Of a stretch of DNA of 64,000 bases, positions 30,196 to 46,437 are shown one piece after another (within the stretch, counting starts at the first letter, position 1; the number at the start of each line of letters is the position of its first letter). Location: assembly GCA_002297365.1 (NCBI GenBank), contig DBKT01000013.1, forward strand, positions 1,601 through 65,600. Direction: 5' to 3'. The translations under genes and the position numbers were made by a program. The DNA comes from Bacillales bacterium UBA743. GTDB lineage: Bacteria; Bacillota_I; Bacilli_A; RFN20; CAG-826. The notes under the pieces are model-generated. The model was not told the origin of the DNA. It searched no databases and saw only the letters and a list, made by a program, of their open reading frames with translations.

Positions 30196-30232
30196 AAGAG
30201 AAAAGCGACTCCATTTTAGAGTCGCTCTTTTG
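30196..30232 (-). terminator. Rho-independent terminator after lysS
   Basis: AGCGACTC-loop-GAGTCGCT with flanking A and T runs. Confidence 0.55.
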
Positions 30233-30248
30233 ATAAATGATTTATCGC

Positions 30249-31733
30249 TTATTTTTCATCCTTCATGGTTGGGAAGAGAAGAACTTCACGGATGGTTGGT
30301 TGTTCAGTAAGCAACATACAAAGACGATCGATACCAACGCCAATGCCACCCGCTGGTTGCATGCCATATTCCATGGCTTCAAGGAAACTATAGTCAATGA
30401 CGTTTGCTTCATCGTCTCCTCTATCTCTTGCAGCCATCTGAGCTTCAAAACGCTCTTTTTGGTCAAATGGGTTGTTAAGTTCGGAATAAGCGTTTCCGAA
30501 TTCGAAACCGCCAATGAAAAGCTCGAAACGATCAACGAAACGAGGGTCGCTTGTTTTCTTGGTTAATGGAGAGACTTCAATCGGATAGGTCGTGATGAAA
30601 GTTGGCTGAATTAAAGTTGGTTCAACAAATTCATCAAAGAAGGCTTGCATGATATATCCGGTGGAATTCCAGGCTTTTTCAAGCGGGACTTTATGTTCTT
30701 TAGCAAGCTCTACCGCTTTTTCGAATGGAATGTCGTCTGTGAAATCAATGCCTGTCTTCTCTTTGATGGCTTCTGCCATAGTAATGACTTTAAACGGCTT
30801 AGCAAGATTGATCTTGTTGCCATTCCAGTCGTATTCCTCTTTGCCTACGACTTTATCAGCAACATAATGCATCATGCCTTCAACCCATGCCATCATGTCT
30901 CTTAAATCGCCATAGGCTTGATAAAGCTCAATGGTCGTGAATTCTGGGTTATGGCGATTGTCCATTCCTTCATTACGGAAGATACGGCCAATTTCATAAA
31001 CGCGGTCAATTCCGCCGATCATACATTTCTTAAGATTTAATTCCGTAGCAATACGTAAATAGAAATCCTTATCTAACGCATTATGATGGGTGATAAATGG
31101 ACGAGCATTTGCTCCGCCTGCAATCGGGGAAAGAACGGGAGTTTCCACCTCAGTGAAACCAAGGGAATCGCAATAATCGCGGATGCCTTTGACAATGGCT
31201 GGACGAAGAATAGCGGTTCTTCTGCTTGTCTCATTCATGATTAAATCAAGATAACGACGACGGCAACGATCTTCCAAATCGGTTAAGCCGTGGTATTTCT
31301 CAGCAAGTGGCTTTAGGCATTTAGAAAGGTGGGTGAATTTGCTGCAACGGATCGTCAATTCACCCGTGCGGGATTTCATCAACGTTCCTTGCACGCCACA
31401 AATATCGCCAACATCTTCCAATTTGAAAATCTTGTAGTTATCTTCTCCGACGACGTTCTTGCCAATCCAGACTTGAATGGTGCCGAATTCATCTTTCACG
31501 TTAAAGAATGCAGCCTTCCCCATATCACGGATAGCCATGATACGTCCGGCAATATCAACGTGGACTTCTTTGGTGGAAAGTTCTTCCGCATCCACTTCTC
31601 CATATTCTTTACGGATATCACGGATTTGATTTTTCCAATCATATTTTTGACCGAATGGGTCAACACCTAGTTCTTTATACTTTGGAAGCTTGGCGCGTCT
31701 GGCTAATTCTTGGTCTGTTAATTTCTCTTCCAT
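30249..31733 (-). CDS. lysS: Lysine--tRNA ligase (class II)
   Basis: A class II aaRS with motifs 2 and 3 (FRNEGMDNRHNPEFTTIELYQAY; GGIGVGIDRL) and an N-terminal OB anticodon-binding domain. Confidence 0.9.
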   Translation of the reverse strand: MEEKLTDQELARRAKLPKYKELGVDPFGQKYDWKNQIRDIRKEYGEVDAEELSTKEVHVDIAGRIMAIRDMGKAAFFNVKDEFGTIQVWIGKNVVGEDNYKIFKLEDVGDICGVQGTLMKSRTGELTIRCSKFTHLSKCLKPLAEKYHGLTDLEDRCRRRYLDLIMNETSRRTAILRPAIVKGIRDYCDSLGFTEVETPVLSPIAGGANARPFITHHNALDKDFYLRIATELNLKKCMIGGIDRVYEIGRIFRNEGMDNRHNPEFTTIELYQAYGDLRDMMAWVEGMMHYVADKVVGKEEYDWNGNKINLAKPFKVITMAEAIKEKTGIDFTDDIPFEKAVELAKEHKVPLEKAWNSTGYIMQAFFDEFVEPTLIQPTFITTYPIEVSPLTKKTSDPRFVDRFELFIGGFEFGNAYSELNNPFDQKERFEAQMAARDRGDDEANVIDYSFLEAMEYGMQPAGGIGVGIDRLCMLLTEQPTIREVLLFPTMKDEK

Positions 31734-32547
31734 ATTATCGTTTCCTTCCACTAATAAAACATGGATAGTTTAACGCGAATAAAGCGTTATTGCACCTTTT
31801 ATAGAAGAGAGAATGTTACCTAATATAAAAGGATAATCGTATGTAGACGGATAAAAGCCGCACGAAACAAAAGTCAAACAGTTCATGCGATCCTTTGTGT
31901 TTCAAAACCTTTGATTCTGAATTATGAAGTCTATCTCCAAATCACCAAATTCGTTTTAAATACGTTTCTCTTTCGTATAAATGTTTCATGAATCAAATTC
32001 CTATCTGAAAGCAACCGTGAAAATCCATAGTTAATAGATATTTTTTAAGTTTTCTTGTTTTTTCTCTATTAACTTACACTTTTAGGAAACATTCTCTTCA
32101 CCATCTAGAGATAAGATAAACTTGACCGTATGATGTGTGATAAACCTTTTACGCCGTTGAAAATCAACGATTCGATTGATGAAGTTTACGAGTAATAAGC
32201 GCTTTGCATTTTATTCCCGTTAAAGAACTTAATGAGATAATTTTCTTCGCCTTTCAATCATCATTAAGTAAAACATTGCATATAGGCCTCTTCTCAACAT
32301 AGAAATGGCTTTTAAACCATCATTAAATCTAAATGTTCTGCCGTTTGACACTCTCCAAGACGCATCAAATCGGCATGTAAAAAAAGAAATACCCTACTAA
32401 TTTAAAGTTAAAGTGGATTTAGAAAAGTTTCAAAACGTCGGATTTAAATCCTTCATTTCGTCGGTTTGTTTTGTTTCAAAACGTCGGTTTCATTGTTTAC
32501 TTCTTTGGTTTTTGCTGATTAAATAGAATCAAGCGAAGGAGCGAAGC

Positions 32548-33837
32548 ATGCCTTTTGAATACAGAAAACGTTTAGCAGAGAACATATTGAATGAAAAATT
32601 AAATTCTTCCGGATGTGTTTTAGTCACCGGTCCGAAATTCTGTGGAAAGACTACACTTTGTCAAAGATTTGCCAAATCAAGCATTTCTTTAAAAAACGGA
32701 AATACGATTGCTTTAGCAAATTCCGATCCAAAAGGAATTTTACAAGGAGAATATCCTCGTCTTATCGACGAATGGCAGAAAGCCCCGGAACTATGGAATG
32801 AAATAAAAGCCGACTTAGATGAAGAGTATCAGTTTGGCAAATACATCATTACCGGAAGCACTACTCCCATTGATCCGTCTAAAATTCAACACTCTGGGGC
32901 TGGACGCATTTCTACAATGAACTTGAAGCCGTTCTCTCTTTATGAATCTGGAGAATCGTCCGGATTGATCTCTTTATCTGAATTGTTTCAAGCAAAAGAT
33001 GCAAGGGAAGACCTTAACTACGTATTAGACAACTCAATTGGCTTAAAAGATATCGCTTATATGCTTTGTAGAGGAGGCTGGCCAATCTCTCTTATGGCAA
33101 AGAGGGAATATGCCATAGCCACCACGGAAAACTACTATGAAGGACTTTTTAGAATAGAAAAAGAAAGTGATGATTTTGCTCTTTTTCTTAAGAACAAGGA
33201 CGTTTCGCTTCTTGTTCTCATTTTGAAGTCTTTTGCAAGAAACGTCTCCACTCAAGCAAAAAGATCCAGCATGAGAAAAGATATATTAGAGTCCAGCATC
33301 CGCGAAACGTTGGATGACGAGACCTTCTCTTCCTATGAAAGGACTCTAAAAGATTTGTTCATTATCTATGATATGCCGGCTTGGGATTTGAATCTTAGAT
33401 CGACCATCGCCATAAGAAGCACACCAACACATCACTTTGTCGACACTTCGATGGCTACATGTGCTTTAGGGATTGAGCCGTCTGATTTAATCAATGATCT
33501 CCACTCCTTTGGCTTTTTCTTTGAAGATTTGGCAGTCAGGGATCTTTCTATATATGCGGATTCTCTTCAAGCAAAATTAAAACATTATCGCGATAGCGCA
33601 GGTCGAGAAGTAGACGCCATTGTAGAACTAAGAAACGGGAACTATGCCGCGATTGAAATCAAAATCTATAGCGATAAAAACATAAAAGACGCATTCGCTT
33701 CTTTAAATAAATTTGAGAAAGCCTTAAAACAAGATGGGTTAAAGCTCCCTCAATTCAAGATGGTTCTCACTAGCCATGGCCCTTGTTACCGTAAAGATGG
33801 AATATATGTCGTACCGATCACAATGCTAAAAGATTAG
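32548..33837 (+). CDS. AAA_14/DUF4143-type ATP-binding protein
   Basis: A Walker A (GPKFCGKTT) is near the N-terminus in an approximately 430-aa protein. This is the architecture typical of the PF13173/PF13635 ATPase family. Confidence 0.7.
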   Translation: MPFEYRKRLAENILNEKLNSSGCVLVTGPKFCGKTTLCQRFAKSSISLKNGNTIALANSDPKGILQGEYPRLIDEWQKAPELWNEIKADLDEEYQFGKYIITGSTTPIDPSKIQHSGAGRISTMNLKPFSLYESGESSGLISLSELFQAKDAREDLNYVLDNSIGLKDIAYMLCRGGWPISLMAKREYAIATTENYYEGLFRIEKESDDFALFLKNKDVSLLVLILKSFARNVSTQAKRSSMRKDILESSIRETLDDETFSSYERTLKDLFIIYDMPAWDLNLRSTIAIRSTPTHHFVDTSMATCALGIEPSDLINDLHSFGFFFEDLAVRDLSIYADSLQAKLKHYRDSAGREVDAIVELRNGNYAAIEIKIYSDKNIKDAFASLNKFEKALKQDGLKLPQFKMVLTSHGPCYRKDGIYVVPITMLKD

Positions 33838-33851
33838 TAACGTTTCACCAT

Positions 33852-35135
33852 CTATAAACAAAACAACGCATAAAGTGGAATAGACTTAATGCCATTTTCG
33901 TAACCAAAATTTTTAGAAGACAACCGAATAGAATATTTTGGTGAGTATTTTTCAACGTAAACTCTTAAACTTTTAGCGCGAACATTGTCCGCAGATTTAA
34001 CTTCAAGAGGAATGGCAGAGTCATCTTTTCTTAGAACAAAATCCACCTCTGCCTTGCCATTAGATTCCCGATAGTTTAAGCGATAGCCACATGATACAAG
34101 TTGTTCTGCAACATAGTTTCCTGCCAAAAGGCCTCTTGCCTTATCGGATATTGCACTTTCGACAAGAATATCTTGAGGCATAATTCCAGATTTGAAGCAA
34201 AGAAGTCCAACGTCAGAATAATAAATCTTGAATGCATCTAGCTGTTCATACAAAGAAAGCGGCAATTTCCCTTCACTCACTTTAACGTTTTCCAAGACCG
34301 CATTTGCGGCCTTAAGCCATTGAAGGGACAGTTCATAGTCTTTCGCACGAGCGTTGCTTTTAATTGAGGCGTAAATGAACTTCGTGTTCTCTTTTGCCAA
34401 TTGAGATGAAAGAGTATTGAAAATGGCTATGCTTTTGATGGTTTCATTTGGCGAAGCATACTTGGCCATATCAGCAATATAAGAATCGGAAATATTGGCC
34501 TGCATCGAACGTACGGAATCAAAATCATTTGTGTCAAGAAAGTTTTCAATGACCGCTGGATAACCACCAATAACCAAATATTTTCCATAAAGATCCAATG
34601 CGAGTTGATGATAAACCTCGGGGAGAGGAGAAAAAGCAGCGTAGGATTCGCGTATTTTTTCTATTAATGCATCATTATTGTTCGCCAATAAGAACTCTTC
34701 AAAAGAAAGAGGAAACATCGTTAACATATTTACCTTTCCGACAGGGAAAGAGAAGTTTCCTCTGTCAATACTGAGACCTAAAAGGTTCCCAGCAGCGACG
34801 ATATGATATTCATTCGCTTCTTCGGCAAAATATTTCAAAGATGTCAAAGCTCTTTCGGATGCTTGTATCTCGTCAAAAATAATCAAAGTCTTGCCCGGCA
34901 ATATCGTTTGTTTTGTATAGGCTGAAATCTCTTGGATGATACGCCTAGGATTTAAATCGGGAGAAAAGATTTTAGTAAGTGTTCCTGCGTCCCCTTCAAA
35001 ATGTAAATAAACAACGTTTTCATAATACGTCTTGCCAAAATCTAATAACGTATATGTTTTACCGACTTGCCTTGCGCCCTTTAATAAAAGCGGTTTACGC
35101 TGTTGCGATTTTTTCCATTCTAGAAGCGAATTCAT
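33852..35135 (-). CDS. AAA_14/DUF4143-type ATP-binding protein. It is a paralog of the previous gene.
   Basis: Walker A (GARQVGKTY), Walker B (IFDEIQ) and the same length class. Confidence 0.7.
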   Translation of the reverse strand: MNSLLEWKKSQQRKPLLLKGARQVGKTYTLLDFGKTYYENVVYLHFEGDAGTLTKIFSPDLNPRRIIQEISAYTKQTILPGKTLIIFDEIQASERALTSLKYFAEEANEYHIVAAGNLLGLSIDRGNFSFPVGKVNMLTMFPLSFEEFLLANNNDALIEKIRESYAAFSPLPEVYHQLALDLYGKYLVIGGYPAVIENFLDTNDFDSVRSMQANISDSYIADMAKYASPNETIKSIAIFNTLSSQLAKENTKFIYASIKSNARAKDYELSLQWLKAANAVLENVKVSEGKLPLSLYEQLDAFKIYYSDVGLLCFKSGIMPQDILVESAISDKARGLLAGNYVAEQLVSCGYRLNYRESNGKAEVDFVLRKDDSAIPLEVKSADNVRAKSLRVYVEKYSPKYSIRLSSKNFGYENGIKSIPLYALFCL

Positions 35136-35151
35136 TATTAAACGTCTTATT

Positions 35152-35700
35152 GGACTGCTAATCTTTAAGTAGACAGTGCATTACAATTTTGCATGCAGAT
35201 TGCAATGCTCTGTAGACAAGGAGGTTACAAAAATGAAACTAACGAAAGAAGAAAGGCTCCCGGTCGGCAAGATGCTGCACGAAGGGAGCCTTTCCTACAA
35301 GGACTGCATGGAAAAATACGGCGTTTCCAGATCCGCATGCTCCAACTGGGTGAGGGAATACAGGCAAATCAACGGAATCCCCCCAAAAGCCCCCATGGGG
35401 GCTCGCGCCGGCATGGGCCAAAGCGATTACGGATCGATGACAAAGAGCCAGCTCCTCGTTGAGCTGATGCGCAAGGACATCGAGGTCGCGAGACTAAAAA
35501 AAGGTATGCGGTGAAAGGGGGTGGTCGAAAAAAGGAATTCGTTTCTATAAGCGGCTCGAGTACCAAGTGATAATGGAGCTTTCCGGAAAATGGCCGGTCG
35601 TAGCCCTCTGCAGGGTGGACATAGCAAAAGTATACAAATCAATCAAACATTTCTTATCCGCCATGGTCATCTTATAAATCGGCATTGAAACTCCGCGGTC
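35152..35700 (+). mobile_element. Truncated IS3-family element, comprising the left inverted repeat, orfA and only about 50 codons of orfB
   Basis: The IRL reads TGGACTGCTAATCTTTAAGTAGAC. OrfA is a HTH protein (MKLTKEERLP…) with a GGAGG RBS. A frame-shifted orfB start (…WPVVALCRV…) stops after about 55 codons. The segment is GC-rich relative to its surroundings. Confidence 0.7.
35233..35514 (+). CDS. IS3-family transposase OrfA (HTH)
   Basis: See the mobile-element entry above. Confidence 0.65.
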   Translation: MKLTKEERLPVGKMLHEGSLSYKDCMEKYGVSRSACSNWVREYRQINGIPPKAPMGARAGMGQSDYGSMTKSQLLVELMRKDIEVARLKKGMR

Positions 35701-35916
35701 TAAGTAATATCCACCACCTTTGCCGTGTTTCGTTTCAATGTTAAAAGAATAACGTTCGTCTGTTGAAACTTTATCCAATTCCCTTTTATATTCAAGAATA
35801 TTCCTTTCTTTAGTGCCCAATTCTTCAGCTAACTCTTTTATGGAATGAACCCTTCCGTCATTCAAACACCGTAGCATTTCAATGCATTTTGCTGCTTTTC
35901 CTTTTTCTTTTTCCAT
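35545..35916 (-). pseudogene. HTH-WYL-type regulator truncated by the IS3 insertion. Only the N-terminal HTH survives.
   Basis: The N-terminus MEKEKGKAAKCIEMLRCLNDG…ELAEELGTKERNILEYKREL is homologous to the two full-length WYL regulators in this island. The C-terminal approximately 20 residues are read from the IS remnant on the opposite strand. Confidence 0.5.
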
Positions 35917-35968
35917 AATAACACACTCCAAAATATACAAAATCAATAGGCTTTGGGTTAACTTGCTG

Positions 35969-36676
35969 TTAAATTTTCCTTAATCCTTTTTTCCAAAAAA
36001 AGCACGAGGATGGATGGGCGCTTGCAACAAGTCGAAGCCCCCTTCTAATCAAACACTCCGTAACCTTTCCGTTCAGATCATTTGGATTTTTCACATTTTG
36101 AAAACCGCCAGTGCACGAATTTATAATTAGTGAAGGCTTATATTTTACAATACGTTTCAAAAATTCCTTTTTCCCACCGCAAGCCCACACATCCGAAAAA
36201 ACTATATCTCTCGCTTTTTTATTGCCATTCAGCTTCAAATTGCTTGCATTGCTACATTGATACGATACGGCATTAACAAGAAGCAATCGATAAATTCCGT
36301 CTCTCAAATGAATTATTTTACTCGCGATAGCCATATTAAGAACGGGCAATAAGTATTGCTCCAAGTTTCTTCCTGTAGTGGACAAGGCTGGCCCAAGAGG
36401 GGTTGATCCATGATATTCATATTTATGAGGCGATTCCAAAACGATGCAAATCACAGGGCACATCATTCTCTTAAATGTGTCAGTTATTTCTTTTGGCCTT
36501 TTCTTTCCACCAAAATAAATGCACTCGTTTTTGCCAAAAACACAGATACCATTTCTTATCCGAATAATTGCAACGTATTCATCATTAACGGGTCTTGGAG
36601 GAAGACCAGTTCTCATGGTTTTGCAGTTTCCATAATTCCTTATACAGCTTTTTTGAAAGACTAGGCCGAGGTACAT
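35969..36676 (-). CDS. Hypothetical Cys-rich protein (235 aa)
   Basis: It has a GGAG RBS. It contains several Cys and His residues and has no assignable family. Confidence 0.4.
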   Translation of the reverse strand: MYLGLVFQKSCIRNYGNCKTMRTGLPPRPVNDEYVAIIRIRNGICVFGKNECIYFGGKKRPKEITDTFKRMMCPVICIVLESPHKYEYHGSTPLGPALSTTGRNLEQYLLPVLNMAIASKIIHLRDGIYRLLLVNAVSYQCSNASNLKLNGNKKARDIVFSDVWACGGKKEFLKRIVKYKPSLIINSCTGGFQNVKNPNDLNGKVTECLIRRGLRLVASAHPSSCFFWKKGLRKI

Positions 36677-37398
36677 ATACTTTCTCCTTTTTTATTATTT
36701 TCTCACAAGAATCGTTTTGTTTAAAAGCCAGTAAGAAACAGGATTATTTATTTTGATTTGTTAGTTATCAATTGATATGAAGCATTTGAGAAGCCCGGGG
36801 CATCCAATCTCGAACTTATTTTGTATCGGCCTTCTCATCCCTTCAACTTGATTCGGGGACTGAGGATCAACGTAATTCTCAGTGCATCATAATGTTCTTT
36901 GTTTCATCTCACGTCGCAGAGTAAGAGTCGAAATGAGCAAAAACTCAGCCTCCTTTAGATTTTTTCCTGATTGACCCTGTGCAATCTCTCGGTCTTCCGC
37001 TGTATGCGGAGTGATAAAAGCAACTTATTTTCACTTTTTGACAATGTGGTTTTTACAAATTTTGCATCGACCCTTGAAGAATTTCTCCTCTTCTTTCATT
37101 TTGTATGATGGGATTATCATTTTGAATATTTGCAAGTAGTACAGCAAGCGGTCAAACATCACGATCATAATGATGGAATTTAAAAGGGTGGCTACATACC
37201 TTTCATTTCTAAGATTTTTTGTAAAAATGGCTTATGCTAAATGCATGCTATTTTAAAATCTAAAAATCCTTCTTTTGTAGTTTAAAGGCTGTAGTCCTTA
37301 CCCCTTATGCGGTGGTTAGCCGCAAAGATGAAATTGCTCTAAACAATCCGTATTTTTGTAATACTTCTAAAAAATTCAAAGCGACACAGTCAATGTCA

Positions 37399-38379
37399 TT
37401 AGTTCCCTTTTCTTATTCCTTTTTCTATTTGATGCGAGTTTCCGAGAATTTCTAATGCGTTTTCTTTAATTGCTTCCTTCAGCCAATAAGGTTCAAGTAC
37501 TTTGCAATCTCTTCCAAAGCCAAGAATAAAAGAAACGATATTTTCTCTAAAATGCATGGTCACTTCAAATACTGTGCTTCCATCTGGCAAATCTTCAACA
37601 ATTTGTTCCTTCCCATAGCAATAGTCCTTAGCGCGAACAGCGGAACGACCATAAAGCTGAAATTTGATTCTATACCATTCATCAGTTTTAATTTTAGTCA
37701 AACCGTATTTATTAAAGAAATCTCTAGGGTTAAAGAACGTATCGTAAACAAACTTTCTACCCGTTGAGGCATAATTTGAAATTCTACACAATTTAAAATA
37801 GCGATAATCTTTTGCAAGCTCGCAATAACCAATTAAATACCAAGATCCGCCCCAGGAAAAAAGATACATGGGTTGAACGTTTCTTTCTCTTATGACATTA
37901 TCATTGGATAGAAAAGACATTCTGATTACCTCACGTTTTGAAATCGCTTCTTGAAAAAACAAATAACGTTTATTGATTTCTTCCTTGGATAAAGCTGAAG
38001 GAAAATGGTCAATAAAAACGAATTCTTCTGAATCGTTTGAATGAATTATCGAGGATAATATTTTTCCCATCGCAAGTTCATATTCTTTTTGATGTGGGAA
38101 TATATTCTGGGGGCGATTCATCTGATAGGCTTCCATTAAAGCATCTTTTTCCTTTTCCGTTAGAAGAATGCTTGGAAAAATGCTGGTATTTTCTAATTTA
38201 TATCCGCCATATCTACCCGGAATGGAGACAATGCTATATCCTGAATCTTCGATTTCCTTTTTGTATTCCAAAATATTTCTAGGATTTGTCTCGAGAAGAT
38301 TCGCTAATTCTGAAATTTTATAGATGTTTCCTGTATTTAATATTTGAAGCATTTTGATGCAAGACGAAGTTTTACTCAT
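37399..38379 (-). CDS. HTH-WYL domain transcriptional regulator (YafY/BrxR-like)
   Basis: An N-terminal HTH_11-like segment (CIKMLQILNTG…ISELANLLETNPRNILEYKKEIE) and a C-terminal WYL-type region (…FSWGGSWYLIGYCE…). Confidence 0.7.
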   Translation of the reverse strand: MSKTSSCIKMLQILNTGNIYKISELANLLETNPRNILEYKKEIEDSGYSIVSIPGRYGGYKLENTSIFPSILLTEKEKDALMEAYQMNRPQNIFPHQKEYELAMGKILSSIIHSNDSEEFVFIDHFPSALSKEEINKRYLFFQEAISKREVIRMSFLSNDNVIRERNVQPMYLFSWGGSWYLIGYCELAKDYRYFKLCRISNYASTGRKFVYDTFFNPRDFFNKYGLTKIKTDEWYRIKFQLYGRSAVRAKDYCYGKEQIVEDLPDGSTVFEVTMHFRENIVSFILGFGRDCKVLEPYWLKEAIKENALEILGNSHQIEKGIRKGN

Positions 38380-38390
38380 ATCCGTTTTCT

Positions 38391-38891
38391 CTATAGTTTT
38401 TCATTCCATCGTGCCTGTCCATTGGATTGATAAAACGTTATAAATAAATGTTCTATAGTTTCTTTATAATACCATGGCGTTACTTCAATTACCTTGTAAT
38501 AGATCTTTTTCTTGTTTTGTCGCTTTCCCAAATAATCATAAACATTCTTTATTTGCGAATTGGTGCTTGAGGGTTTCCCATATTTCTCCCCCTCAAAATT
38601 GTCGTTTTTGACTAAGTGCTGCGTTAATCTTAAATGGACATTATTAGCCGTACCAACATATAAAACGTTATTTTGTTCGTCTCCTATAAGATAAAGATAA
38701 GCGGTTGTGAGGTTTCCGGCATCTTCGTCTTTTTCAAAAGACAAAATTTCATCAAGGCAGTCCAAGGAATAGATGCCCGTTTTAGGATCAAAGGATGGAT
38801 TACCATATCTAAGTTCTATCCAAGGGGCCTTTCTAATTTTATTCTCATAATGTAGTCTTAGCAAAAATGAGATTAATTTCATGATTGTCAT
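38391..38891 (-). CDS. GIY-YIG nuclease-domain protein
   Basis: It has the canonical motif YLYLIGDEQNNVLYVGTANNVHLRLTQH. It lies immediately upstream of the WYL regulator, within 12 bp of it. The start codon is uncertain (alternatives at 38924 TTG and 38882). Confidence 0.65.
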   Translation of the reverse strand: MTIMKLISFLLRLHYENKIRKAPWIELRYGNPSFDPKTGIYSLDCLDEILSFEKDEDAGNLTTAYLYLIGDEQNNVLYVGTANNVHLRLTQHLVKNDNFEGEKYGKPSSTNSQIKNVYDYLGKRQNKKKIYYKVIEVTPWYYKETIEHLFITFYQSNGQARWNEKL

Positions 38892-39024
38892 CTTTTTTGA
38901 ATAATTATTATTGCAATATAGCAATCAAAGACAATAATACGCATATTAAGAAACGGGTGAAAGCGTTGAGTAAGATTTTTCTTATTTTCCATTATTTCAG
39001 CAAAACTACATTGCTTTTAATGAA

Positions 39025-39225
39025 CTAGCTCAATAAGGTAAGGCATCCGAAAACAATCAATGTAGTTCCAAGCATAAAACTAAGCGCCATGAAGATGGCC
39101 CAACGAATAGAAGCGGCCTTCGAAAAATTCCATCCCTTTGGATTTCTAGCGATTCTAATAATTCCAAGGCTCAATGCCGCTACACAGCCGACAGTTCCAA
39201 TGATAATTTCAATAATTCCTAACAT
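39025..39225 (-). CDS. Small 2-TM membrane protein (66 aa). It is a divergent paralog of the two upstream small proteins.
   Basis: TM-(IRIARNPKGWNF)-TM topology. Confidence 0.45.
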   Translation of the reverse strand: MLGIIEIIIGTVGCVAALSLGIIRIARNPKGWNFSKAASIRWAIFMALSFMLGTTLIVFGCLTLLS

Positions 39226-39246
39226 ATTTATATCCTTTCTTTTTCT

Positions 39247-39423
39247 TCAGAATGCTGCAGCAATCAGTATGACCCCACCGACAAATCCAATGATGGAACA
39301 AACAGCAAACATGATTCCGTAGAAACCTCTGAGGTTGTCTGGGGTTCTAATAATGCAAACGACAGTTGCTGCAACTGCAAGCACGCAAAGAACAATACCG
39401 ATAATTAACATAATTAAGTTCAT
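39247..39423 (-). CDS. Small 2-TM membrane protein (58 aa)
   Basis: MNLIMLIIGIVLCVLAVAATVVCIIRTPDNLRGFYGIMFAVCSIIGFVGGVILIAAAF. It shares the loop TPDNLRGFYGIMF with the next ORF. Confidence 0.55.
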   Translation of the reverse strand: MNLIMLIIGIVLCVLAVAATVVCIIRTPDNLRGFYGIMFAVCSIIGFVGGVILIAAAF

Positions 39424-39525
39424 AAATTTTCTCCTTTTTAGCTTTTATAAGCCTTTTGAATATTTGGCAAATGTTATTTGAGAAGGCAACATTTTCGCCA
39501 GTATTTGTTGTCCTTTCGATTTCCT

Positions 39526-39702
39526 CTAAAGCGAGAAGACAATCAAAGCGACCCCTGCGGCAAGTCCTACTACTGCACAAATTCCAAACATGATTCCATA
39601 GAAACCTCTGAGGTTGTCTGGCGTCTTGATGACACAGCCAATTGGCAACCCAATGGCAAATAAGCAAAGAATAATTCCAACGACTAATGTGACTAAATTC
39701 AT
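39526..39702 (-). CDS. Small 2-TM membrane protein (58 aa)
   Basis: MNLVTLVVGIILCLFAIGLPIGCVIKTPDNLRGFYGIMFGICAVVGLAAGVALIVFSL. It starts 12 bp after the FtsH-like gene. Confidence 0.55.
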   Translation of the reverse strand: MNLVTLVVGIILCLFAIGLPIGCVIKTPDNLRGFYGIMFGICAVVGLAAGVALIVFSL

Positions 39703-39713
39703 AATTTTCTCCT

Positions 39714-41039
39714 TTAATTTTTATTTTCAAATACGTCATGTATTTCCTTAGATGAGAGAGATGTTTTCTCAAGCAATCTTGCGGCTAATTTCTCGATTTT
39801 TTCTTTTCCTTCTTCAAGAATTTCTACAGCTCTCTTTGACAACCCTTCTATAATTTCTGTTCCTTTAGCCTGTCTTTCATCCATTATTGTCATACTAAAC
39901 GGTCCACTGTATTCGGGATTCTCAAGAACGATATAATCAAAACCATAGAAGCCTTCATTGAGCATCGCTGAGATCGTTTTTTTCGCTTTTTCAAAGTCGT
40001 CTTGATTGCCCCCAAAGCATTTTCCCGTCATGACCTTTACGGATAAGAAACCAGCTAAGGCTATCATGCAGGTTTCTTCTCCACTTTTAAGTGTGAAAGA
40101 TTCTTGTCCTGTAGATACTGTTTCAGTGGAACCACTTGATTCCCCTTGTTGAAGAAGAGAAACGCTTCCAAGCTTTTCTGGGATAAGGCGGTAAATCATA
40201 TAAGCATGCCCCGCTTCATGATAAGCGGTTAGCTTTTGTTCTTCTTTTGAGCAAGCGGATTCTCTTGGCAAATCCTTAAAGGCAACACGCCGAATCGCAT
40301 ATGTGAAGTCTTGAATAGAAAGAGATTGTTCTCGTTTGGAAACAGCTTGAATGATGACTTCGTTAACAACGCATTCTATATCCGCCCCAGAGAATCCGCT
40401 TGTCATTTTTGCGATTTCATCAACGCTTACTCCCAAAGGCAGGTCCGTTTTTTCCAAGAAGTGTTCAATGATCAATTTTCTTTCTAAATCATTGGGAAGG
40501 GGAAACACAATCTGCCTATCAAACCTTCCGGAACGGCTTAACGCATCTCCTAAATATTTTCTTTCATTGCAAGTTGCAATCACGATGACGCCTTCTTTAG
40601 AGCTGATTTTGTCCAACTCATGTAGAAGAATCTTCTGGTTTTTAAGATTTTCCGTTATTTCGTAAGCATACTTACGGTAGCCTGCAATTTTCTCAATCTC
40701 ATCAATAAATAAAATGGCGCGATCGTTTTCATGTGCCCTTTTGAAGCCGTGATAGATGTCTTCTTCTACGCTCAATTTCCTTTCGATGGCATCTGAAACG
40801 CTAATTTCAATAAGAGGAATATCCAAATACTCCGCAATATCCATCACCAGGCGAGATTTGCCAGTGCCTGGCTGCCCATAAAAGAGCCAGCCTTTTGGAT
40901 AATGGGCTCCTCTTTCGAGATAAAGTTTCTCATTTTGGAATAAATCCACGATTTGAGCCGCTTCTTCCCTTATTTCCCTATATCCAGCGATATGAGGAAA
41001 CATTTTTTGTAATGTAGTTTCGTTAATTTTTTCAGTCAT
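39714..41039 (-). CDS. FtsH-like AAA+ ATPase/M41 zinc metalloprotease that lacks the transmembrane and periplasmic regions
   Basis: Walker A (GQPGTGKSRL), Walker B (ILFIDEIE), the SRH (…LSRSGRFDRQI…) and HEAGH (TAYHEAGHAYMIY). The protein starts only about 50 aa before the Walker A, so it has no N-terminal TM hairpin. Confidence 0.75.
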   Translation of the reverse strand: MTEKINETTLQKMFPHIAGYREIREEAAQIVDLFQNEKLYLERGAHYPKGWLFYGQPGTGKSRLVMDIAEYLDIPLIEISVSDAIERKLSVEEDIYHGFKRAHENDRAILFIDEIEKIAGYRKYAYEITENLKNQKILLHELDKISSKEGVIVIATCNERKYLGDALSRSGRFDRQIVFPLPNDLERKLIIEHFLEKTDLPLGVSVDEIAKMTSGFSGADIECVVNEVIIQAVSKREQSLSIQDFTYAIRRVAFKDLPRESACSKEEQKLTAYHEAGHAYMIYRLIPEKLGSVSLLQQGESSGSTETVSTGQESFTLKSGEETCMIALAGFLSVKVMTGKCFGGNQDDFEKAKKTISAMLNEGFYGFDYIVLENPEYSGPFSMTIMDERQAKGTEIIEGLSKRAVEILEEGKEKIEKLAARLLEKTSLSSKEIHDVFENKN

Positions 41040-41076
41040 ATCTCCTCCTTTCGGAACAAGATTATCTTAAAAGCCA

Positions 41077-41108
41077 TTCCTACATTATTTATGTATGAAT
41101 TCATTTTT
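41077..41108 (-). promoter_or_regulatory. Shared dyad motif, copy A (CTACATtatttATGTAT), 40-60 nt upstream of the FtsH-like gene
   Basis: See finding 3. Confidence 0.55.
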
Positions 41109-41142
41109 ATTAAAAATAATTTAGAAACTTAAAAACGTTATA

Positions 41143-41640
41143 TTACTTTTTGATGGTCAAAGTTCGACGAAGCATATGAGCCTTGATTTTGAGTTTCTCT
41201 TTTTGCTTTGTATAGAAACGCCCGTATTCGTCCACATATAGACCAGTGACAACGCTCGTATTAAGAAAATCCCAGACAATTAAGTGAACGTTCTTGCCGA
41301 ACTTAACTTTCCCATCGAAAATAATCTTTGTTGGAACGAGGCCGTTGTCTGAGTATTCAGGAACGGGGCAAAACTTTCTTAATTTTTCTACAGCATATTC
41401 TAAAGTTCCAGTTACTTGGTTTCCAGAAAAGGTAATGCGTTGAAAATCAGAATCGTAGAAATTTCCTTGATTGTCCTTATATGCGCCTTCAAGAACAATA
41501 GAAGAACCGTCTTTTTTAACATGTTCAAACCTGCAATAAGACAAAGATGGTCTTATTTGATTTACGCCTGTAAAAGGGAGGCTTATCGTTGTATATGTTA
41601 ATTCGACAAAATTATTTTTTTCATTTAAATGTAGTTTCAT
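41143..41640 (-). CDS. Hypothetical protein (about 165 aa)
   Basis: The ORF overlaps the LemA stop. Confidence 0.45.
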   Translation of the reverse strand: MKLHLNEKNNFVELTYTTISLPFTGVNQIRPSLSYCRFEHVKKDGSSIVLEGAYKDNQGNFYDSDFQRITFSGNQVTGTLEYAVEKLRKFCPVPEYSDNGLVPTKIIFDGKVKFGKNVHLIVWDFLNTSVVTGLYVDEYGRFYTKQKEKLKIKAHMLRRTLTIKK

Positions 41641-41641
41641 A

Positions 41642-42148
41642 CTAAATATCGTTATCATCGAATCCGGCTAGTTTTGTACTAGAATCTAGATTTTGGGAAT
41701 CTATATATTTAGCGTTTTTGAAACGAAAGATCGTTTTTAAAATAACGTTCGGAAATTCATTGATGTATTGATTGTAATCATTCACCAACTTATTAAGTTC
41801 TAATTGAGAATTTTGGTAAGCATCTGCTAAAGAGAGAACGAGATTTCCTGCTAAGGTAAAATGCGAAGATATCTTTCCTGTCGCCCCTCCAATCAACCTT
41901 CCTCCTTGATAAGAAGAATTAGCCACCTTATAAGCGTTCCCTTGCGAAGAATCCGCATCTATGGTTGCAGTTCCTGTCTTTCTCAAAACTTGAAGGTATT
42001 TTGCTTTTGCAATACGCACATTGCTTTGGGCATCACGAATATTTTCTCTTTTGCGGATCACCATATTTCGAAAGCCAATAATCCATCCGATTAACCAGCA
42101 AAAAGCTATAAAACCTAATGCCAATAACATCCATCCCCACCATCTCAT
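41642..42148 (-). CDS. LemA-family protein
   Basis: An N-terminal TM, then …FRNMVIRKRENIRDAQSNVRIAKAKY…, and a C-terminal FPNVILKTIFRFKNAKYI. This matches the LemA pattern. Confidence 0.65.
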   Translation of the reverse strand: MRWWGWMLLALGFIAFCWLIGWIIGFRNMVIRKRENIRDAQSNVRIAKAKYLQVLRKTGTATIDADSSQGNAYKVANSSYQGGRLIGGATGKISSHFTLAGNLVLSLADAYQNSQLELNKLVNDYNQYINEFPNVILKTIFRFKNAKYIDSQNLDSSTKLAGFDDNDI

Positions 42149-43701
42149 AAATTTGATTCCTTGTATTTCAATACATTTATTGCATTTTTTACCTTTTCTA
42201 GATTCACTTTGTGCTTAAACTCGTTCTTCTCTCTATCTGTAAAAACGCATCCATCCTCAATGAGCTTGTTCATGTATTCCCCCGCTTTAGGGAAGCCAAT
42301 AGAACAATGTCTTTGAATGTCGCTTATACCAACTGTTGGCATATTCTCACAATAGAGTAATACTGTAAGATAAGTCACGTCATTTGAATTAGAAACAGGA
42401 GCATTGCCACTTTTTACTTCACCATTTGGAACGAAAGTGTCTGTTTTCGGAGACTCTTTTTTCTTAGCCTTTAATTCAGTGAAGGCGCCCTCCGGCTTCT
42501 TAGAACAGCGCTCGGGATTGATATAGCCTTCTTCGCAAAGACGGTTGAATAAACGACCAGCAACCGGAAAGCCGATGGAATATTTCCTTTGAATAGTACT
42601 GATGCTAATGAATTCATCGTTTTCACAATCTTGGATCAATTCCTGATAAATGATATCCGTTGATTTTTGCTGAGTTTGATTTGAGTTTGTAAGCCCTTCG
42701 GCGTTTTTATTCGTCTGCTCTGGTTTAAGCTCTTTATTCGCCATCTCTGGTTTAAACTTTCTGTTGGATTTCAGAATCTTTCTTCCAATCGTCATTAATT
42801 TATCCCGGAGGATTTGAGGAGAAAGCACTTCGCATTCTCCCTGAAAGTCGAGAATAGCCCTAAGTGTTCCTTCTAAATCCTCTGTATCAAATTTCAAAAT
42901 GACAGAACCATCATCTAAAACCCTTTCCGATTGATTTGCCCCAAGCTCTCTTTTCCCAATGTAAGGGCATAAAGAGGACAAATGAAGTTCTACGTGATAT
43001 ACCTTTTCTTTAAGAAAGTTGAAATCCGTGTTATCAACGTAATCTTCATTGAAAAAATAATCTTTTGAAAAACCGATACCAGAAGTTTTGTATTCTTGAA
43101 TGTTATTTAATTTGATGCATTGATATTTCTTTTGGATTCGTGAATAGCAAAGAAGAAAAAGACTACCATCATCCATAATGAGTTTGTACGGTTCAACATC
43201 GTTTTCGATTGCTTTATGAATCGTGACCACGTAGACAATATGTGCTACAAGCCTCTTTTCAATGCATTTAACAAAGAAATCGTATCGTTCCTTTAACTCT
43301 TTGGTGGATAAAGCAAAACGACTACGGTCCGTTATTTTAACTTTGGGGGTTTCCTTTCCATCCCAACGGATAGCAGAGAAAATTTTGTTCATCGCCTTTT
43401 CAAAATCATCCCGGCAATAGATGGTTCCTTCATTGCTCACATACGAAGAAGCAAAAGCGAGAGAATCTCTTTCTTCCTTTGTAAAGCAAAGGGAGGGGAG
43501 CAAAACGGACTTCTTTAAACAAATCCCGCCATACCTTCCCGATGTAGATTCAAATTCATATCCACATTCTTGAAGTTCTTTCCTATATTCTGAGATGTTT
43601 CTTTCTTTAAAGCCCAAGGTGTTTGCCAATTCGGAGTTTTTATATTTCTTTCCCCCAGCGAGGGCTTGTAGCATCTTGATGCAATTTGCTGTTTTTCCCA
43701 T
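42145..43701 (-). CDS. HTH-WYL regulator fused to two C-terminal FtsK-gamma-like winged-helix domains
   Basis: The N-terminus CIKMLQALAGGKKYKNSELANTLGFKERNISEYRKEL is homologous to the other WYL regulators. The C-terminus carries SISTIQRKYSIGFPVAGRLFNRLCEEGYI and GISDIQRHCSIGFPKAGEYMNKLIEDGCV, which fit the FtsK gamma pattern S.S..QR…IGY.RA.R…LE..G.V. Confidence 0.65.
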   Translation of the reverse strand: MGKTANCIKMLQALAGGKKYKNSELANTLGFKERNISEYRKELQECGYEFESTSGRYGGICLKKSVLLPSLCFTKEERDSLAFASSYVSNEGTIYCRDDFEKAMNKIFSAIRWDGKETPKVKITDRSRFALSTKELKERYDFFVKCIEKRLVAHIVYVVTIHKAIENDVEPYKLIMDDGSLFLLCYSRIQKKYQCIKLNNIQEYKTSGIGFSKDYFFNEDYVDNTDFNFLKEKVYHVELHLSSLCPYIGKRELGANQSERVLDDGSVILKFDTEDLEGTLRAILDFQGECEVLSPQILRDKLMTIGRKILKSNRKFKPEMANKELKPEQTNKNAEGLTNSNQTQQKSTDIIYQELIQDCENDEFISISTIQRKYSIGFPVAGRLFNRLCEEGYINPERCSKKPEGAFTELKAKKKESPKTDTFVPNGEVKSGNAPVSNSNDVTYLTVLLYCENMPTVGISDIQRHCSIGFPKAGEYMNKLIEDGCVFTDREKNEFKHKVNLEKVKNAINVLKYKESNL

Positions 43702-43720
43702 ATAAATCCCCTTTCTTTTT

Positions 43721-44509
43721 TTAATAAATGACTGTACTCATGCAGACAACGGATGCTCTGTTTTTAACATTTCCAGACGTTAAGACAGAAGCGTTCGTGT
43801 AGTTTCCTTCCAAAACAACCTCGCCTGCCGCTTCAATTTGCAGAGTATCTAATGTGCAATTCGCTTTTACGGCTCCGTTCGTTTTTACGGATAAAACTTG
43901 AATAGAATTCAAGGCAATCTCAAAGAGGAAACTCCGTTTTTTAACTTTTTTTAGAGCATCCGCTTGAAAACTAAGATATAGTTCACCATTAGAATCTTTT
44001 TGAAAAATCAACGCATCATTTGGCAAATCATTGCCATTTCCATATATGGTGAAACAGCTCTTGTTTCTCGAAGCTGGATCCGCTCCACTATTTACGATCG
44101 TGATGTCTCCTGAAGGAATATCCAGGGACATGATTCTTGCATCCCCCAAAAAAATCTCCCTTCTCCTATTTAAGAGAATAACATCGGAGGAGAAATGAAT
44201 GGGGGCCTCTTTTGGCATACGGGCAGCAATGCTAGAGTTCTTTTTCACAAAAGGGGACAAGGCCTGAAATACGTCTTCTTTCGGATAAAACATGTTCTTG
44301 TTTGCTATACGGGTCAGCTCTTTTTCATCCAGAAGGGATGCGGGGTCCTCATCTTTTATCAAAGACGTAAGAACGTCAAGAAAGTGCTTTTGAGAGAGGT
44401 TGCCCCCTATAAAATCCGCCAAGAAGGAACACAGGTAGAGAGGTTGCTTGAATATCTGTTCTTTGTCTTCCCTATTAAGAATGATTTTAACTGCTTCAGC
44501 GTAAGTCAT
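43721..44509 (-). CDS. Hypothetical protein (262 aa) with a beta-rich repetitive C-terminal half
   Basis: The C-terminus has short degenerate repeats (VKTNGAVKAN / VLEGNYTNASVLTSGNVKN). Confidence 0.45.
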   Translation of the reverse strand: MTYAEAVKIILNREDKEQIFKQPLYLCSFLADFIGGNLSQKHFLDVLTSLIKDEDPASLLDEKELTRIANKNMFYPKEDVFQALSPFVKKNSSIAARMPKEAPIHFSSDVILLNRRREIFLGDARIMSLDIPSGDITIVNSGADPASRNKSCFTIYGNGNDLPNDALIFQKDSNGELYLSFQADALKKVKKRSFLFEIALNSIQVLSVKTNGAVKANCTLDTLQIEAAGEVVLEGNYTNASVLTSGNVKNRASVVCMSTVIY

Positions 44510-45344
44510 ATTTTGATTCTCCGATTGAATTTAGCAAAAAAAGAAAAAAGATGGTTATTCCAAAAATTATAATGGGAAGAAAGTAGGCTATAAGACTATA
44601 TGTGATAGATCCTTTTTCAGAAGGGAACGAAGATGCAGACACTGCAAAAGAAACGGATAATGCAGCTGCAACGCCAGTTGAATAAGGACGTAGATGAATA
44701 TTGTGTCGGTCACCCTTGTTTACTAAATGTTGATTCACAAAATAAAGAACAATTAAGATGGTTCCTGTAATTAAAGAGAACCAAAAGATATAAGAATCTT
44801 TTTTAAGAGCCCATCCAATCACGCCTCCCATAGTATTCATCAAAAACAAGATTCCATTGACGATGGCTGCGTGCTTTTTCCTGTGTTTCAAATGATTGAA
44901 ATTACTATATTTGTTCCATTTGTTTTCGATAACGGAGCTGAGGCACTGCACAAAGAAGGCGGCAACCCCTATAGCCAACATCATCCAGCAAGAGAAGAAA
45001 GAAGAAATGAAAAGCGCAATGAAAAACAAACAGACAAAAATAGTTAGAAAATAGGCATCATAGAAAATACTGGACTTGTTTTCATCATATTGAATATAGG
45101 ATGACTTATAACCCTCGACACCATGATTTTGATGAGGAACGTATCGATTAGAACGATTGAAGTTATGGGCGCCTCTAGCATTTTGCTTAGGACATTCCCC
45201 TCTCTTCTTTTTAGAAGTCTGAGCAATTCGTTGATTCGGAGGATTATTATCGCTAGAGGGAAAATGAACTATAAAAGGTGGTAGAGCGCCCTTCCTCCTG
45301 CTTCTTCTATTATTCATTTCGAAAGAATACTTATCTCGATTCAC
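44496..45344 (-). CDS. Hypothetical polytopic membrane protein with a basic N-terminal tail
   Basis: An N-terminal Arg/Lys-rich 80 aa is followed by 5-6 TMs. Confidence 0.45.
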   Translation of the reverse strand: MNRDKYSFEMNNRRSRRKGALPPFIVHFPSSDNNPPNQRIAQTSKKKRGECPKQNARGAHNFNRSNRYVPHQNHGVEGYKSSYIQYDENKSSIFYDAYFLTIFVCLFFIALFISSFFSCWMMLAIGVAAFFVQCLSSVIENKWNKYSNFNHLKHRKKHAAIVNGILFLMNTMGGVIGWALKKDSYIFWFSLITGTILIVLYFVNQHLVNKGDRHNIHLRPYSTGVAAALSVSFAVSASSFPSEKGSITYSLIAYFLPIIIFGITIFFLFLLNSIGESKYDLR

Positions 45345-45359
45345 GATATAACCTCCGCT

Positions 45360-46436: not shown

Positions 46437-46437
46437 A

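Follow-up and report, generated by a model that had tools for sequence, protein, structure and literature searches.

Does a small GIY-YIG nuclease gene that lies directly in front of a WYL regulator gene form a functional unit with it, or do the two genes merely adjoin? The question is raised by a locus in a 64,000-nt stretch of Bacillales bacterium UBA743 (contig DBKT01000013.1), hereafter called the window, in which a sequence-only reading had noticed two neighbouring open reading frames (ORFs) and had interpreted them as a minimal WYL-controlled nuclease module. Both ORFs are indeed found where that reading had placed them and on one strand, which it had left unnamed and which is the minus strand. 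The explanation we favour, at a little short of even confidence, is a co-inherited two-gene cassette of uncultured Bacillota, in which a GIY-YIG nuclease resembling phage T4 endonuclease II (EndoII) is controlled by the WYL regulator.

The longest ORF with the GIY-YIG signature (38391..38924, minus strand) encodes 177 aa from a TTG at 38924, the length originally given with the proviso that the protein might be shorter; gene callers pick either ATG 38891 (166 aa) or ATG 38882 (163 aa). Because the homology to a related locus, L002, begins exactly at ATG 38882, the true product is most likely the 163-aa protein (38391..38882, minus strand). The textbook motif is present (AYLYLIG...VLYVGTANNVHLRLTQH), and the protein consists of an N-terminal extension of ~60 aa (helix plus beta-hairpin) and a complete GIY-YIG core, which makes up the rest of the chain as far as the C-terminus. 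The Pfam GIY-YIG profile PF01541 scores 27.3 bits (cut-off 22.6; E 4.5e-6), in a match that spans only profile positions 3-36 of 78, i.e. the N-terminal half. In an alignment of 18 family members, the residues Y67, Y78, G80, R88, H92, E147 and N163 (166-aa numbering) are invariant or kept in at least 90% of the sequences; they make up the full catalytic residue set of GIY-YIG enzymes. The AF2 model (pLDDT 89.6) displays the GIY-YIG alpha/beta fold. With a dN/dS of 0.14-0.20 for the nuclease against its L002 homologue and of 0.12 for the regulator, both genes are under purifying selection. The possibility that the nuclease is a piece of a larger, disrupted gene, raised as a caveat at the outset, was ruled out: its homologues are stand-alone proteins of 145-189 aa with the same layout.

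Between the nuclease stop codon and the start codon of the regulator gene, WYL(A), lies the spacer AGAAAACGGAT (38380..38390, minus strand), which measures 11 nt and not 12 bp as first stated; the immediate adjacency on the same strand stands. As a spacing of 11 nt is typical of genes within one operon, it implies that nuclease and WYL(A) are almost certainly co-transcribed, and their translation is possibly coupled. Three lineages and two genomic contexts share the junction: the window and L002 have it, L097 retains a remnant, and in L002 and L097 the spacer is kept with 1-nt differences. The window and L002 share 78% nucleotide identity from the nuclease ATG at 38882 to position 37445 inside the WYL gene and nothing beyond; the neighbourhood of L002 differs from that of the window and has an ABC transporter upstream. 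The same ABC context is found in L097, whose WYL gene is 90% identical to that of the window and whose nuclease is a pseudogene remnant, with the last 134 nt and the spacer left and with in-frame stops. The L002 nuclease carries two frameshifts. Both indels lie in A-runs, and neighbouring ABC-transporter genes in the same contig are also split, which suggests sequencing errors; the in-frame fusion of nuclease and WYL that L002 displays was accordingly not accepted as evidence.

Synonymous distances from the window WYL gene amount to 0.46 for L097 and 1.03 for L002, both nuclease-linked, compared with 1.6-2.0 for the nuclease-less loci L012 and L013. By this measure, the WYL genes with a linked nuclease are most closely related among themselves, and we therefore regard the pair as a co-inherited cassette. 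In the syntenic loci L012-L014, an orthologous WYL gene (83% identical) occupies the same position without a nuclease. Thus, the regulator occurs without the nuclease (L012-L014) or with a dead one (L097), and the reverse is never seen in the clade of the window, L002 and L097. This one-way loss pattern fits a harmful gene in need of control. For the regulator, the nuclease is a passenger that is optional and can be lost. A survey of 80 loci with WYL relatives yielded a single GIY-like neighbour, and a weak one; this ORF, which follows the WYL gene in L025, was not counted (hhalign 80%, R88 and H92 unaligned). What counts against the cassette is that the junction is present in only three lineages, with the nuclease dead in one and frameshifted in another; as it stands, the gene pair is rare and partly decaying. 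The module as first proposed thus holds in its intact nuclease, its recurrent junction and the purifying selection; it is not self-contained, given the nuclease-less loci L012-L014 and the habit of the regulator to end a different gene cluster (see below).

The homology search suggested in the sequence-only reading, by which UvrC- or Slx1-like members were to be separated from homing-type members, points to neither group; the nearest known enzyme is T4 EndoII. In its confidently predicted structure, the nuclease is closest to EndoII and not to homing endonucleases, UvrC or Slx1, with the GIY-YIG domain of UvrC as the second-best fold match, and the family profile matches EndoII by sequence as well, N-terminal extension included (E 1e-3). 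A UvrC or Slx1 identity was rejected on the grounds that UvrB-binding, RNase H-like endonuclease and HhH domains are missing, as is the Slx1 zinc finger. GIY-YIG homing enzymes carry an N-terminal catalytic domain and C-terminal DNA-binding modules (NUMOD, IENR1, HTH). Unlike I-TevI or the T4 Seg enzymes, the nuclease has its catalytic core at the C-terminus and no such modules behind it, and Pfam, NCBIfam and PHROGs scans of the protein revealed no DNA-binding domain of the NUMOD, IENR1 or HTH type. The gene stands by itself between other genes of a bacterial chromosome; neither a group I intron nor an intein was found around it, with no Rfam match in 30000..46000 and none in L002 or L097, which dispels the second initial caveat, i.e. 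that of a homing endonuclease borne by an intron or intein.

The nuclease might still be selfish in another way, as a free-standing mobile endonuclease (seg/mob-like, as in T4) that entered the intergenic space before a conserved gene, spreads by cutting nuclease-less alleles and co-converting the flanking WYL gene, and serves neither host nor regulator. Co-conversion of the flank would account for the WYL allele travelling with the nuclease, and the presence/absence polymorphism at one intergenic site of syntenic loci, together with the decay in L097 (truncation and in-frame stops) and L002, would be in keeping with such an element. Some contexts of the wider nuclease family are, moreover, phage-like or mobile-looking: relatives lie in a phage-like contig with an adjoining HNH gene and beside a DUF927 protein. 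However, the DNA-binding module is missing (the EndoII-like N-terminal extension is all that the protein has besides the core, which ends it), intron and intein are absent, and I-TevI is less similar in fold than EndoII, UvrC and restriction enzymes are. Relatives are also lacking from phage and plasmid collections: tblastn returned none from 50,697 phage genomes, 72,556 plasmids or IMG/VR, and BFVD structures gave no match at an E of 1e-3 or better. Finally, with ~19 representatives among 1.84 billion, the family is far rarer than a successful selfish element should be. (Four hits of the representative search, P0008, P0013, P0015 and P0019, are long, repetitive proteins with spurious summed matches to a 30-residue stretch and were discarded as not kin.) A search of species-representative genomes with the single protein found no locus; with the family alignment it found one, L005, and the same family-alignment search found none in IMG/VR or JGI metagenomes. 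In L005, whose neighbourhood is NERD/UvrD-like, a WCX-domain protein is encoded two genes upstream of the family member; besides this locus, the wider family has no WYL gene in the available sequence, which for several contigs is very short. Altogether, we consider a selfish nuclease distinctly improbable and retain the cassette as the preferred reading.

The description of the second gene as a full-length HTH-WYL regulator proved accurate. WYL(A) (37399..38379, minus strand) encodes 326 aa with Pfam matches to WYL (3.4e-15, residues 143-202) and WCX (1.2e-12, residues 237-311) and a weak match to HTH_11 at residues 9-61, below cut-off. It matches the PADLOC WYL models at 1e-29 and has at least 271 homologues. 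Against PDB, the family profile finds PafBC (2.4e-16), BrxR (2e-8 and 8e-5, the former with BrxR_Efer and in the WYL domain only), CapW (2e-5) and DriD (4e-4), with PafC also matched. From these profile matches, WYL(A) can be assigned to the wHTH-WYL-WCX superfamily of transcription factors (YafY/PafBC/BrxR/CapW/DriD), and it appears nearer to PafBC than to BrxR or CapW.

The company that this regulator keeps elsewhere is different. In 9 loci (L012, L013, L014, L017, L018, L020, L022, L024 and L031), its relatives (38-83% identity) close a Ser/Thr kinase-vWA-vWA-PP2C-LemA cluster as the last gene, and the target of the regulator may therefore be the cluster or the cargo after the regulator. 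The older and wider tie of the regulator is to the end of this cluster and to a variable cargo slot. In 4 loci this slot is taken by UDG-fold or DUF1643 genes, and L018, L024 and L031 encode large, unrelated proteins there. In the window, WYL(A) is followed by a 722-nt stretch (36677..37398, minus strand) with no ORF longer than 47 aa and no Rfam match, and then by the gene of a 235-aa protein (35969..36676, minus strand). A good promoter-like site (36771..36743, minus strand; 10/12 matches) and a Shine-Dalgarno sequence precede this gene. Its product, with the motifs LESPH, AVSYQCSN, NSCTGG and HPSS, is by fold prediction a divergent member of the UDG superfamily. It matches no UDG Pfam model by sequence, and sequence comparisons of its family with DUF1643 and with a 263-aa protein of L013 gave no match; the UDG kinship emerged from the fold search alone. 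In Pfam, DUF1643 itself belongs to the UDG clan. In the window and in L002, where a full-length nuclease gene is present and the downstream gene is visible, a UDG-superfamily or DUF1643 gene follows the regulator, and the 235-aa gene is a possible second regulated or partner gene of the cassette. The whole region is variable and of lower GC, an island in which an IS remnant and three WYL genes are found.

The 142-nt intergenic region before the nuclease (38883..39024, minus strand) is the candidate site for a promoter or operator of the pair. Besides two weak sigma-70-like sites (38961..38934 and 38934..38907, minus strand), it contains two palindromes, a perfect one of 10 bp, TATTGCAATA (38909..38918), and an imperfect one of 27 nt (38882..38927). 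Promoter-like sites were no commoner than in shuffled sequence (25 vs 27 expected), and the terminator scan performed no better than on shuffled sequence. In the window, the palindrome TATTGCAATA is no more frequent than expected by chance, and L002, L012 and L013 lack it; the motif GTGATATYAT, common to the regions before WYL in L012 and L013, also has chance frequency in the window, and the intergenic regions of the compared loci have no informative 10-mers in common. No clear terminator was seen between the small membrane-protein genes of the upstream operon and the nuclease, and read-through from that operon is therefore possible. The initial proposal that WYL regulators control adjacent defence genes has its precedent in BrxR and CapW; at this locus, however, the nuclease lies upstream of the regulator, and neither an operator nor an above-chance promoter was found.

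These observations lend some weight to a reading in which WYL(A) is part of the kinase-vWA-PP2C-LemA-FtsH-like cluster or marks its boundary, and/or regulates the UDG-fold cargo, the nuclease being a further cargo gene that came to lie in the gap before WYL(A), is transcribed by read-through and has no specific regulatory tie to it. Its relatives directly follow the cluster; the cargo behind the regulator changes while the regulator stays; BrxR-type regulators act downstream (PMC9122601); and the missing terminator before the nuclease, like the promoter-like site and Shine-Dalgarno sequence of the 235-aa gene, agrees with this arrangement. On the other hand, the junction lies away from the cluster in L002 and L097, so it was the regulator, and not the cluster, that the nuclease moved with. 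The homology block that begins exactly at the nuclease start codon, the separate clade formed by the nuclease-linked regulators in synonymous distance and the operon-typical spacer also speak against a chance neighbour. We therefore rate this explanation as rather unlikely and continue to prefer a cassette in which the nuclease is specifically tied to WYL(A).

The gene order itself raises a further alternative. Toxin-antitoxin loci such as higBA and mqsRA have the toxin gene first, and here, too, the small nuclease comes first, with an HTH protein encoded 11 nt behind it. The nuclease could thus be a toxin that WYL(A) neutralises through repression of the shared promoter, perhaps also by direct binding; the persistence of the regulator where the nuclease is lost or dead and the weak ribosome-binding site at the nuclease start would both suit such a pair. 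However, WYL regulators are not known to act as antitoxins, 326 aa is large for an antitoxin, the regulator is widespread without any nuclease, and other nucleases of the family have no WYL partner in the available sequence. No sign of contact between the two proteins was seen; the in-frame fusion of L002 arises from indels in homopolymers, in a contig whose other genes are split too. We give this alternative little credence.

The cassette, as we prefer to read it, would work as follows. The observations cover the integrity of the genes, their fold and linkage, the selection on them and where they are present or absent; from these we infer co-transcription, repression, ligand and substrate. 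A dimer of WYL(A) would bind near the cassette promoter and hold its own expression and that of the nuclease low, until a ligand of the WYL domain frees or converts the regulator. PafBC and DriD suggest, by analogy, single-stranded DNA as a possible ligand, or else some other nucleic-acid signal that arises when phages attack or DNA is damaged. The nuclease would then be produced, possibly along with the downstream UDG-fold gene, and would nick or cut DNA with little regard for sequence, much like T4 EndoII, and so damage invading and/or host DNA; low specificity is proposed because the nuclease has no separate DNA-recognition domain. That the cassette serves in defence we infer, and purely infer.

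With the same parts, a role outside defence can be drawn up, in which a PafBC/DriD-like WYL activator switches on a damage-inducible repair set, i.e. a UvrC-like GIY-YIG incision nuclease and a UDG-fold glycosylase, for base or nucleotide excision repair. The profile of WYL(A), closest to PafBC and also matching DriD, the UvrC domain as runner-up in the fold comparison and the UDG-fold gene after the regulator in 4 loci would all suit such a set. Housekeeping repair genes, however, are unlike these three, which are patchy, rare and variable among close relatives; the nuclease lacks every other UvrC domain, and the surroundings, a variable island of lower GC that harbours an IS remnant and three WYL genes, are hardly where such genes would be expected. 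We hold a repair set to be the least probable of the readings. Hardly better is the standing of a three-part WYL-gated unit for base-excision restriction, made up of nuclease, regulator and UDG-fold gene, which we regard as a long shot. In such a unit, a nucleic-acid signal would lead the WYL protein to turn both other genes on, the glycosylase-like protein would strip a modified or unusual base from invading DNA, and the EndoII-like GIY-YIG enzyme would cut at or near the abasic sites.

If the mechanism proposed for the two-gene cassette is true, it would be among the smallest regulated nuclease cassettes, with a 163-aa effector and a sensor-regulator, and a simple system for studying what WYL domains sense and how a nuclease without a specificity domain stays safe. 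It would also provide a bacterial, host-side counterpart of T4 EndoII. Apart from the nuclease, the WYL family marks the end of the kinase-vWA-PP2C-LemA cluster and the start of a cargo-swap slot, which includes three different UDG-like families; this slot after WYL regulators could be mined for new defence genes.

Among known enzymes, T4 EndoII is a tetramer that nicks or cuts at loosely defined sites and spares hydroxymethylcytosine DNA. The likeness of the nuclease to this protein (DenA; PDB 2wsh) lies in the N-terminal extension before the core, the lack of an extra DNA-binding domain and the closest overall structure, at an identity of only 16%. In contrast to EndoII, which is phage-encoded and has no paired regulator, the nuclease is bacterial and chromosomal, is without relatives in phage collections and precedes WYL(A). 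PD-T4-3 (PDB 9u75; PMC12923530), a GIY-YIG nuclease with specificity for modified cytosine, acts against phages as a single gene. At 248 aa it is ~85 residues longer than the nuclease, shares 14% identity with it and, unlike it, has no WYL partner; its PADLOC model does not match the nuclease. A comparison of the nuclease with PADLOC-DB v2 gave no system match and only a weak, motif-level match to the candidate PDC-S14 (E 3e-4, 17.8 bits, 33 residues). For the downstream gene, the nearest parallels are the defence glycosylases Brig1 and Brig2 (PMC11078745; bioRxiv 10.1101/2025.10.29.685425), with which the 235-aa protein shares the predicted divergent UDG-superfamily fold and a variable, defence-like slot; it differs from them in matching no UDG Pfam model, and its tie to the nuclease is positional only.

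The closest precedents for the regulator are BrxR (PMC9122601) and CapW (PMC9122588), wHTH-WYL-WCX repressors of adjacent defence operons. WYL(A) has the same three-domain architecture, its neighbour is a candidate effector, and the region around them is variable, island-like and home to further WYL genes; the logic expected for it by analogy would be repression that is lifted by a ligand of the WYL domain. The host here belongs to the Bacillota, whereas 97% of BrxR homologues are proteobacterial (PMC9122601). Characterised BrxR regulators lie upstream of the genes they control and act on genes downstream of themselves (PMC9122601), with a promoter and an inverted-repeat operator just before the regulator. 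In the window, by contrast, the nuclease lies upstream of WYL(A), only 11 nt precede the regulator, and no inverted repeat of at least 20 bp was found upstream of its gene; the position rule of BrxR does fit the UDG-fold gene downstream. The cassette is a WYL regulator beside a candidate effector, a pattern that is already known, and the pairing with a nuclease is a variant of it.

The GIY-YIG nuclease ORF (38391..38924, minus strand; 177 aa counted from TTG) is followed 3' by the 326-aa ORF of the regulator WYL(A) (37399..38379, minus strand) after a spacer that measures 11 nt in the sequence, not the 12 nt of the sequence-only reading. Public gene calls for an identical nuclease protein start at ATG 38891 (166 aa) or ATG 38882 (163 aa); since the nucleotide homology to L002, a related locus with the same pair, opens exactly at ATG 38882, we take the product to have 163 aa. 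The host is an uncultured member of the Bacillota; glycosyltransferases encoded in the flanks match MAG proteins labelled 'Bacillota bacterium'. Over 20.5 kb the window agrees at 99.7% identity with L001, a metagenome contig of 118 kb. The nuclease matches Pfam GIY-YIG with 27.3 bits (curated cut-off 22.6), an alignment that covers just the front half of the profile, and the catalytic positions Y67, Y78-x-G80, R88, H92, E147 and N163 (numbered on the 166-aa form) are all conserved in the family alignment; with both ORFs in place, the observation of a GIY-YIG gene beside a WYL regulator is confirmed.

Among 1.84 billion representative proteins we found 23 matches to the nuclease, and as four of these are spurious (repetitive giant proteins) and were removed, the family amounts to about 19 clusters. 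Its members are stand-alone proteins, mostly of 145–189 aa, on which ground the fragment of a larger gene that the sequence-only reading had considered is rejected. Domain scans detected no DNA-binding module, the core extending to the C-terminus, and no intron RNA was found at the locus, so that a classical homing endonuclease was rejected as well; nor is the protein UvrC or Slx1. Relatives were absent from 50,697 phage genomes, 72,556 plasmids and IMG/VR, and among BFVD structures none matched with an E-value of 1e-3 or lower. AlphaFold predicts the structure with confidence (pLDDT 89.6, pTM 0.85), and the family profile matches phage T4 endonuclease II (EndoII) at the sequence level too, N-terminal extension included. 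Taken together, the motif, model, profile, domain and phage/intron search results therefore identify the protein as an intact EndoII-like small nuclease. Other family members adjoin HNH, ParB-methylase and SAM-synthetase genes on a phage-like contig (L006), DUF960, HU-like and DUF927 genes (L003) or unknown genes (L009–L011), or lie on short contigs (L004, L008, L098), varied contexts that weaken the reading as a minimal WYL-nuclease module. That the gene is a selfish mobile endonuclease gene we consider unlikely.

WYL(A), with at least 271 homologues, matches the Pfam families WYL (3.4e-15), WCX (1.2e-12) and, weakly, HTH_11, and also generic WYL models of PADLOC. Its family profile matches PafBC best (2.4e-16), followed by BrxR (2e-8 and 8e-5), CapW (2e-5) and DriD (4e-4); judged by these profiles, it is a member of the wHTH-WYL-WCX superfamily without a clear affiliation to BrxR or CapW in particular. 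A damage-inducible repair set is the reading to which we assign the least probability.

L002 is 78% identical to the window at the nucleotide level from the nuclease ATG to 37445 within the WYL gene, with no homology beyond either edge; its cassette lies between an upstream ABC transporter and a downstream DUF1643 gene. L097, in the same ABC-transporter context, encodes a WYL protein 90% identical to WYL(A). Of its nuclease gene the final 134 nt survive, followed by the spacer and the WYL gene; other sequence has taken the place of the 5' part, and in-frame stops interrupt what is left. The replacement of about 130 nt (L097 440..570) looks GC-rich in AT-rich surroundings and has no Rfam match. 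Between window and L002, dN/dS is 0.14–0.20 for the nuclease and 0.12 for the WYL gene; synonymous distances from the WYL(A) gene are 0.46 for L097 (the nearest), 1.03 for L002 and 1.6–2.0 for the syntenic, nuclease-less L012 and L013. From these junctions, rates and distances, the nuclease-linked regulators form, at the sequence level, a clade of their own, and the cassette has moved between genomic contexts as a unit. L002 contains two frameshifts, which may be sequencing errors because both fall in A-runs and the ABC-transporter genes of the same contig are also split. A toxin-antitoxin-like pair of nuclease and WYL(A) seems quite improbable to us.

The proposed minimal WYL-controlled nuclease module thus holds as to co-inheritance in L002 and L097, but L012, L013 and L014 share the large upstream operon with the window (WYL-FtsK-gamma, LemA-like, 171-aa protein, TM-less FtsH-like AAA protease and small membrane proteins) and then directly encode a WYL protein of 83% identity without a nuclease. 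It is further weakened by a neighbourhood survey of 80 metagenome loci with WYL(A) relatives, in which those of at least 38% identity mostly terminate a Ser/Thr kinase-vWA-vWA-PP2C-...-LemA cluster (nine loci, L012–L014 included), and the nuclease family HMM found a single GIY-like neighbour, weak and doubtful (L025). That the regulator serves this neighbouring cluster or downstream cargo, the nuclease being incidental cargo, is a possible though not a probable alternative. In the window the co-directional cluster (39025..50705, minus strand) runs from the Ser/Thr kinase (49404..50705) through two vWA proteins, a PP2C phosphatase, four unknowns, a WYL regulator of 518 aa that carries two FtsK-gamma domains (42145..43701), a LemA-like protein, a 171-aa unknown and a TM-less FtsH-like AAA+/M41 protease (39714..41039), also matched by PADLOC IetA models, to three tandem paralogous two-TM membrane-protein genes (39025..39702; 58, 58 and 66 aa), all on the minus strand. 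The latter contain an 85-nt direct repeat (39261–39345 and 39540–39624, 78% identical) and number one in L012, two in L013 and three in the window. Gut and rumen metagenomes repeatedly contain simpler versions, each closing with a WYL(A)-type regulator; the kinase-vWA-PP2C part resembles the 'TerY-P triad'.

The gene after the regulator differs among loci, a further point against a minimal module: it encodes a 235-aa protein in the window, whereas L013 has a homologue of 240 aa and three additional proteins. In L002 and, following two small ORFs, in L012 it is a DUF1643 gene; L018, L024 and L031 have large proteins there that are unrelated. UDG-like or DUF1643 genes occupy this slot in four loci. 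The 235-aa protein (35969..36676, minus strand) has no Pfam match and belongs to a small family (13 homologues, one in Acholeplasma laidlawii) marked by the motifs LESPH, AVSYQCSN, NSCTGG and HPSS and by a UDG-superfamily fold; a defence glycosylase of the Brig1 type is a possible identity. The 722 nt between it and WYL(A) (36677..37398) contain no ORF >47 aa and no Rfam match, and may consist of gene remnants, regulatory DNA or an uncharacterised RNA; behind the regulator of L002, L012 and L013 there are comparable gaps of 188–475 nt. A second, 330-aa WYL gene, WYL(B), comes later in L012 and L013, and the third WYL gene of the window (35545..35946, 133 aa) is its truncated copy, with homology ending at 35616 at an IS remnant (ORFs resembling IS transposase HTH, 35176..35514, plus strand). 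The match with L012 picks up again in the DUF4143 ATPase gene. Two convergent AAA_14/DUF4143 ATPase genes (32548..35135; 429 and 427 aa) directly adjoin the WYL region. The ruminal Bacilli MAG with locus L005 encodes in a row (7848..10318) a 374-aa WCX-domain protein, a 294-aa unknown and a short, 98-aa nuclease-family member, the last being two genes after the WCX-domain protein; NERD and UvrD-like genes adjoin them. Homology (27% identity, E 2e-11) links the 294-aa protein to the 318-aa protein after WYL(B) in L012 (12368..13324), which suggests another recurrent WYL-cargo pairing.

Ahead of the nuclease gene, a 142-nt region contains weak promoter-like sites, at chance frequency, and a 10-bp palindrome neither enriched nor conserved in the compared loci; no clear terminator separates the upstream operon from the cassette. 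As these signals are uninformative, we infer control of the nuclease by WYL(A) solely from operon-like spacing, co-inheritance, asymmetric loss and analogy to BrxR and CapW (PMC9122601, PMC9122588). The earlier interpretation is supported in part: the nuclease is intact and the pair is co-inherited; the module is not self-contained, and the search for an operator found none. The account we favour as most likely, if tentatively, is a co-transcribed, autoregulated cassette: it would be transcribed as one unit, the regulator acting on its own expression and on that of the nuclease, which would be a harmful, dispensable passenger.

Our literature search found no paper on a WYL/GIY-YIG pair. A WYL regulator beside a nuclease in a variable island would not surprise a specialist, and the pair occurs very rarely and shows partial decay. 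Among known systems, EndoII resembles the nuclease by sequence profile, its N-terminal extension included; BrxR and CapW share the superfamily of WYL(A), whereas its profile scores higher against PafBC.
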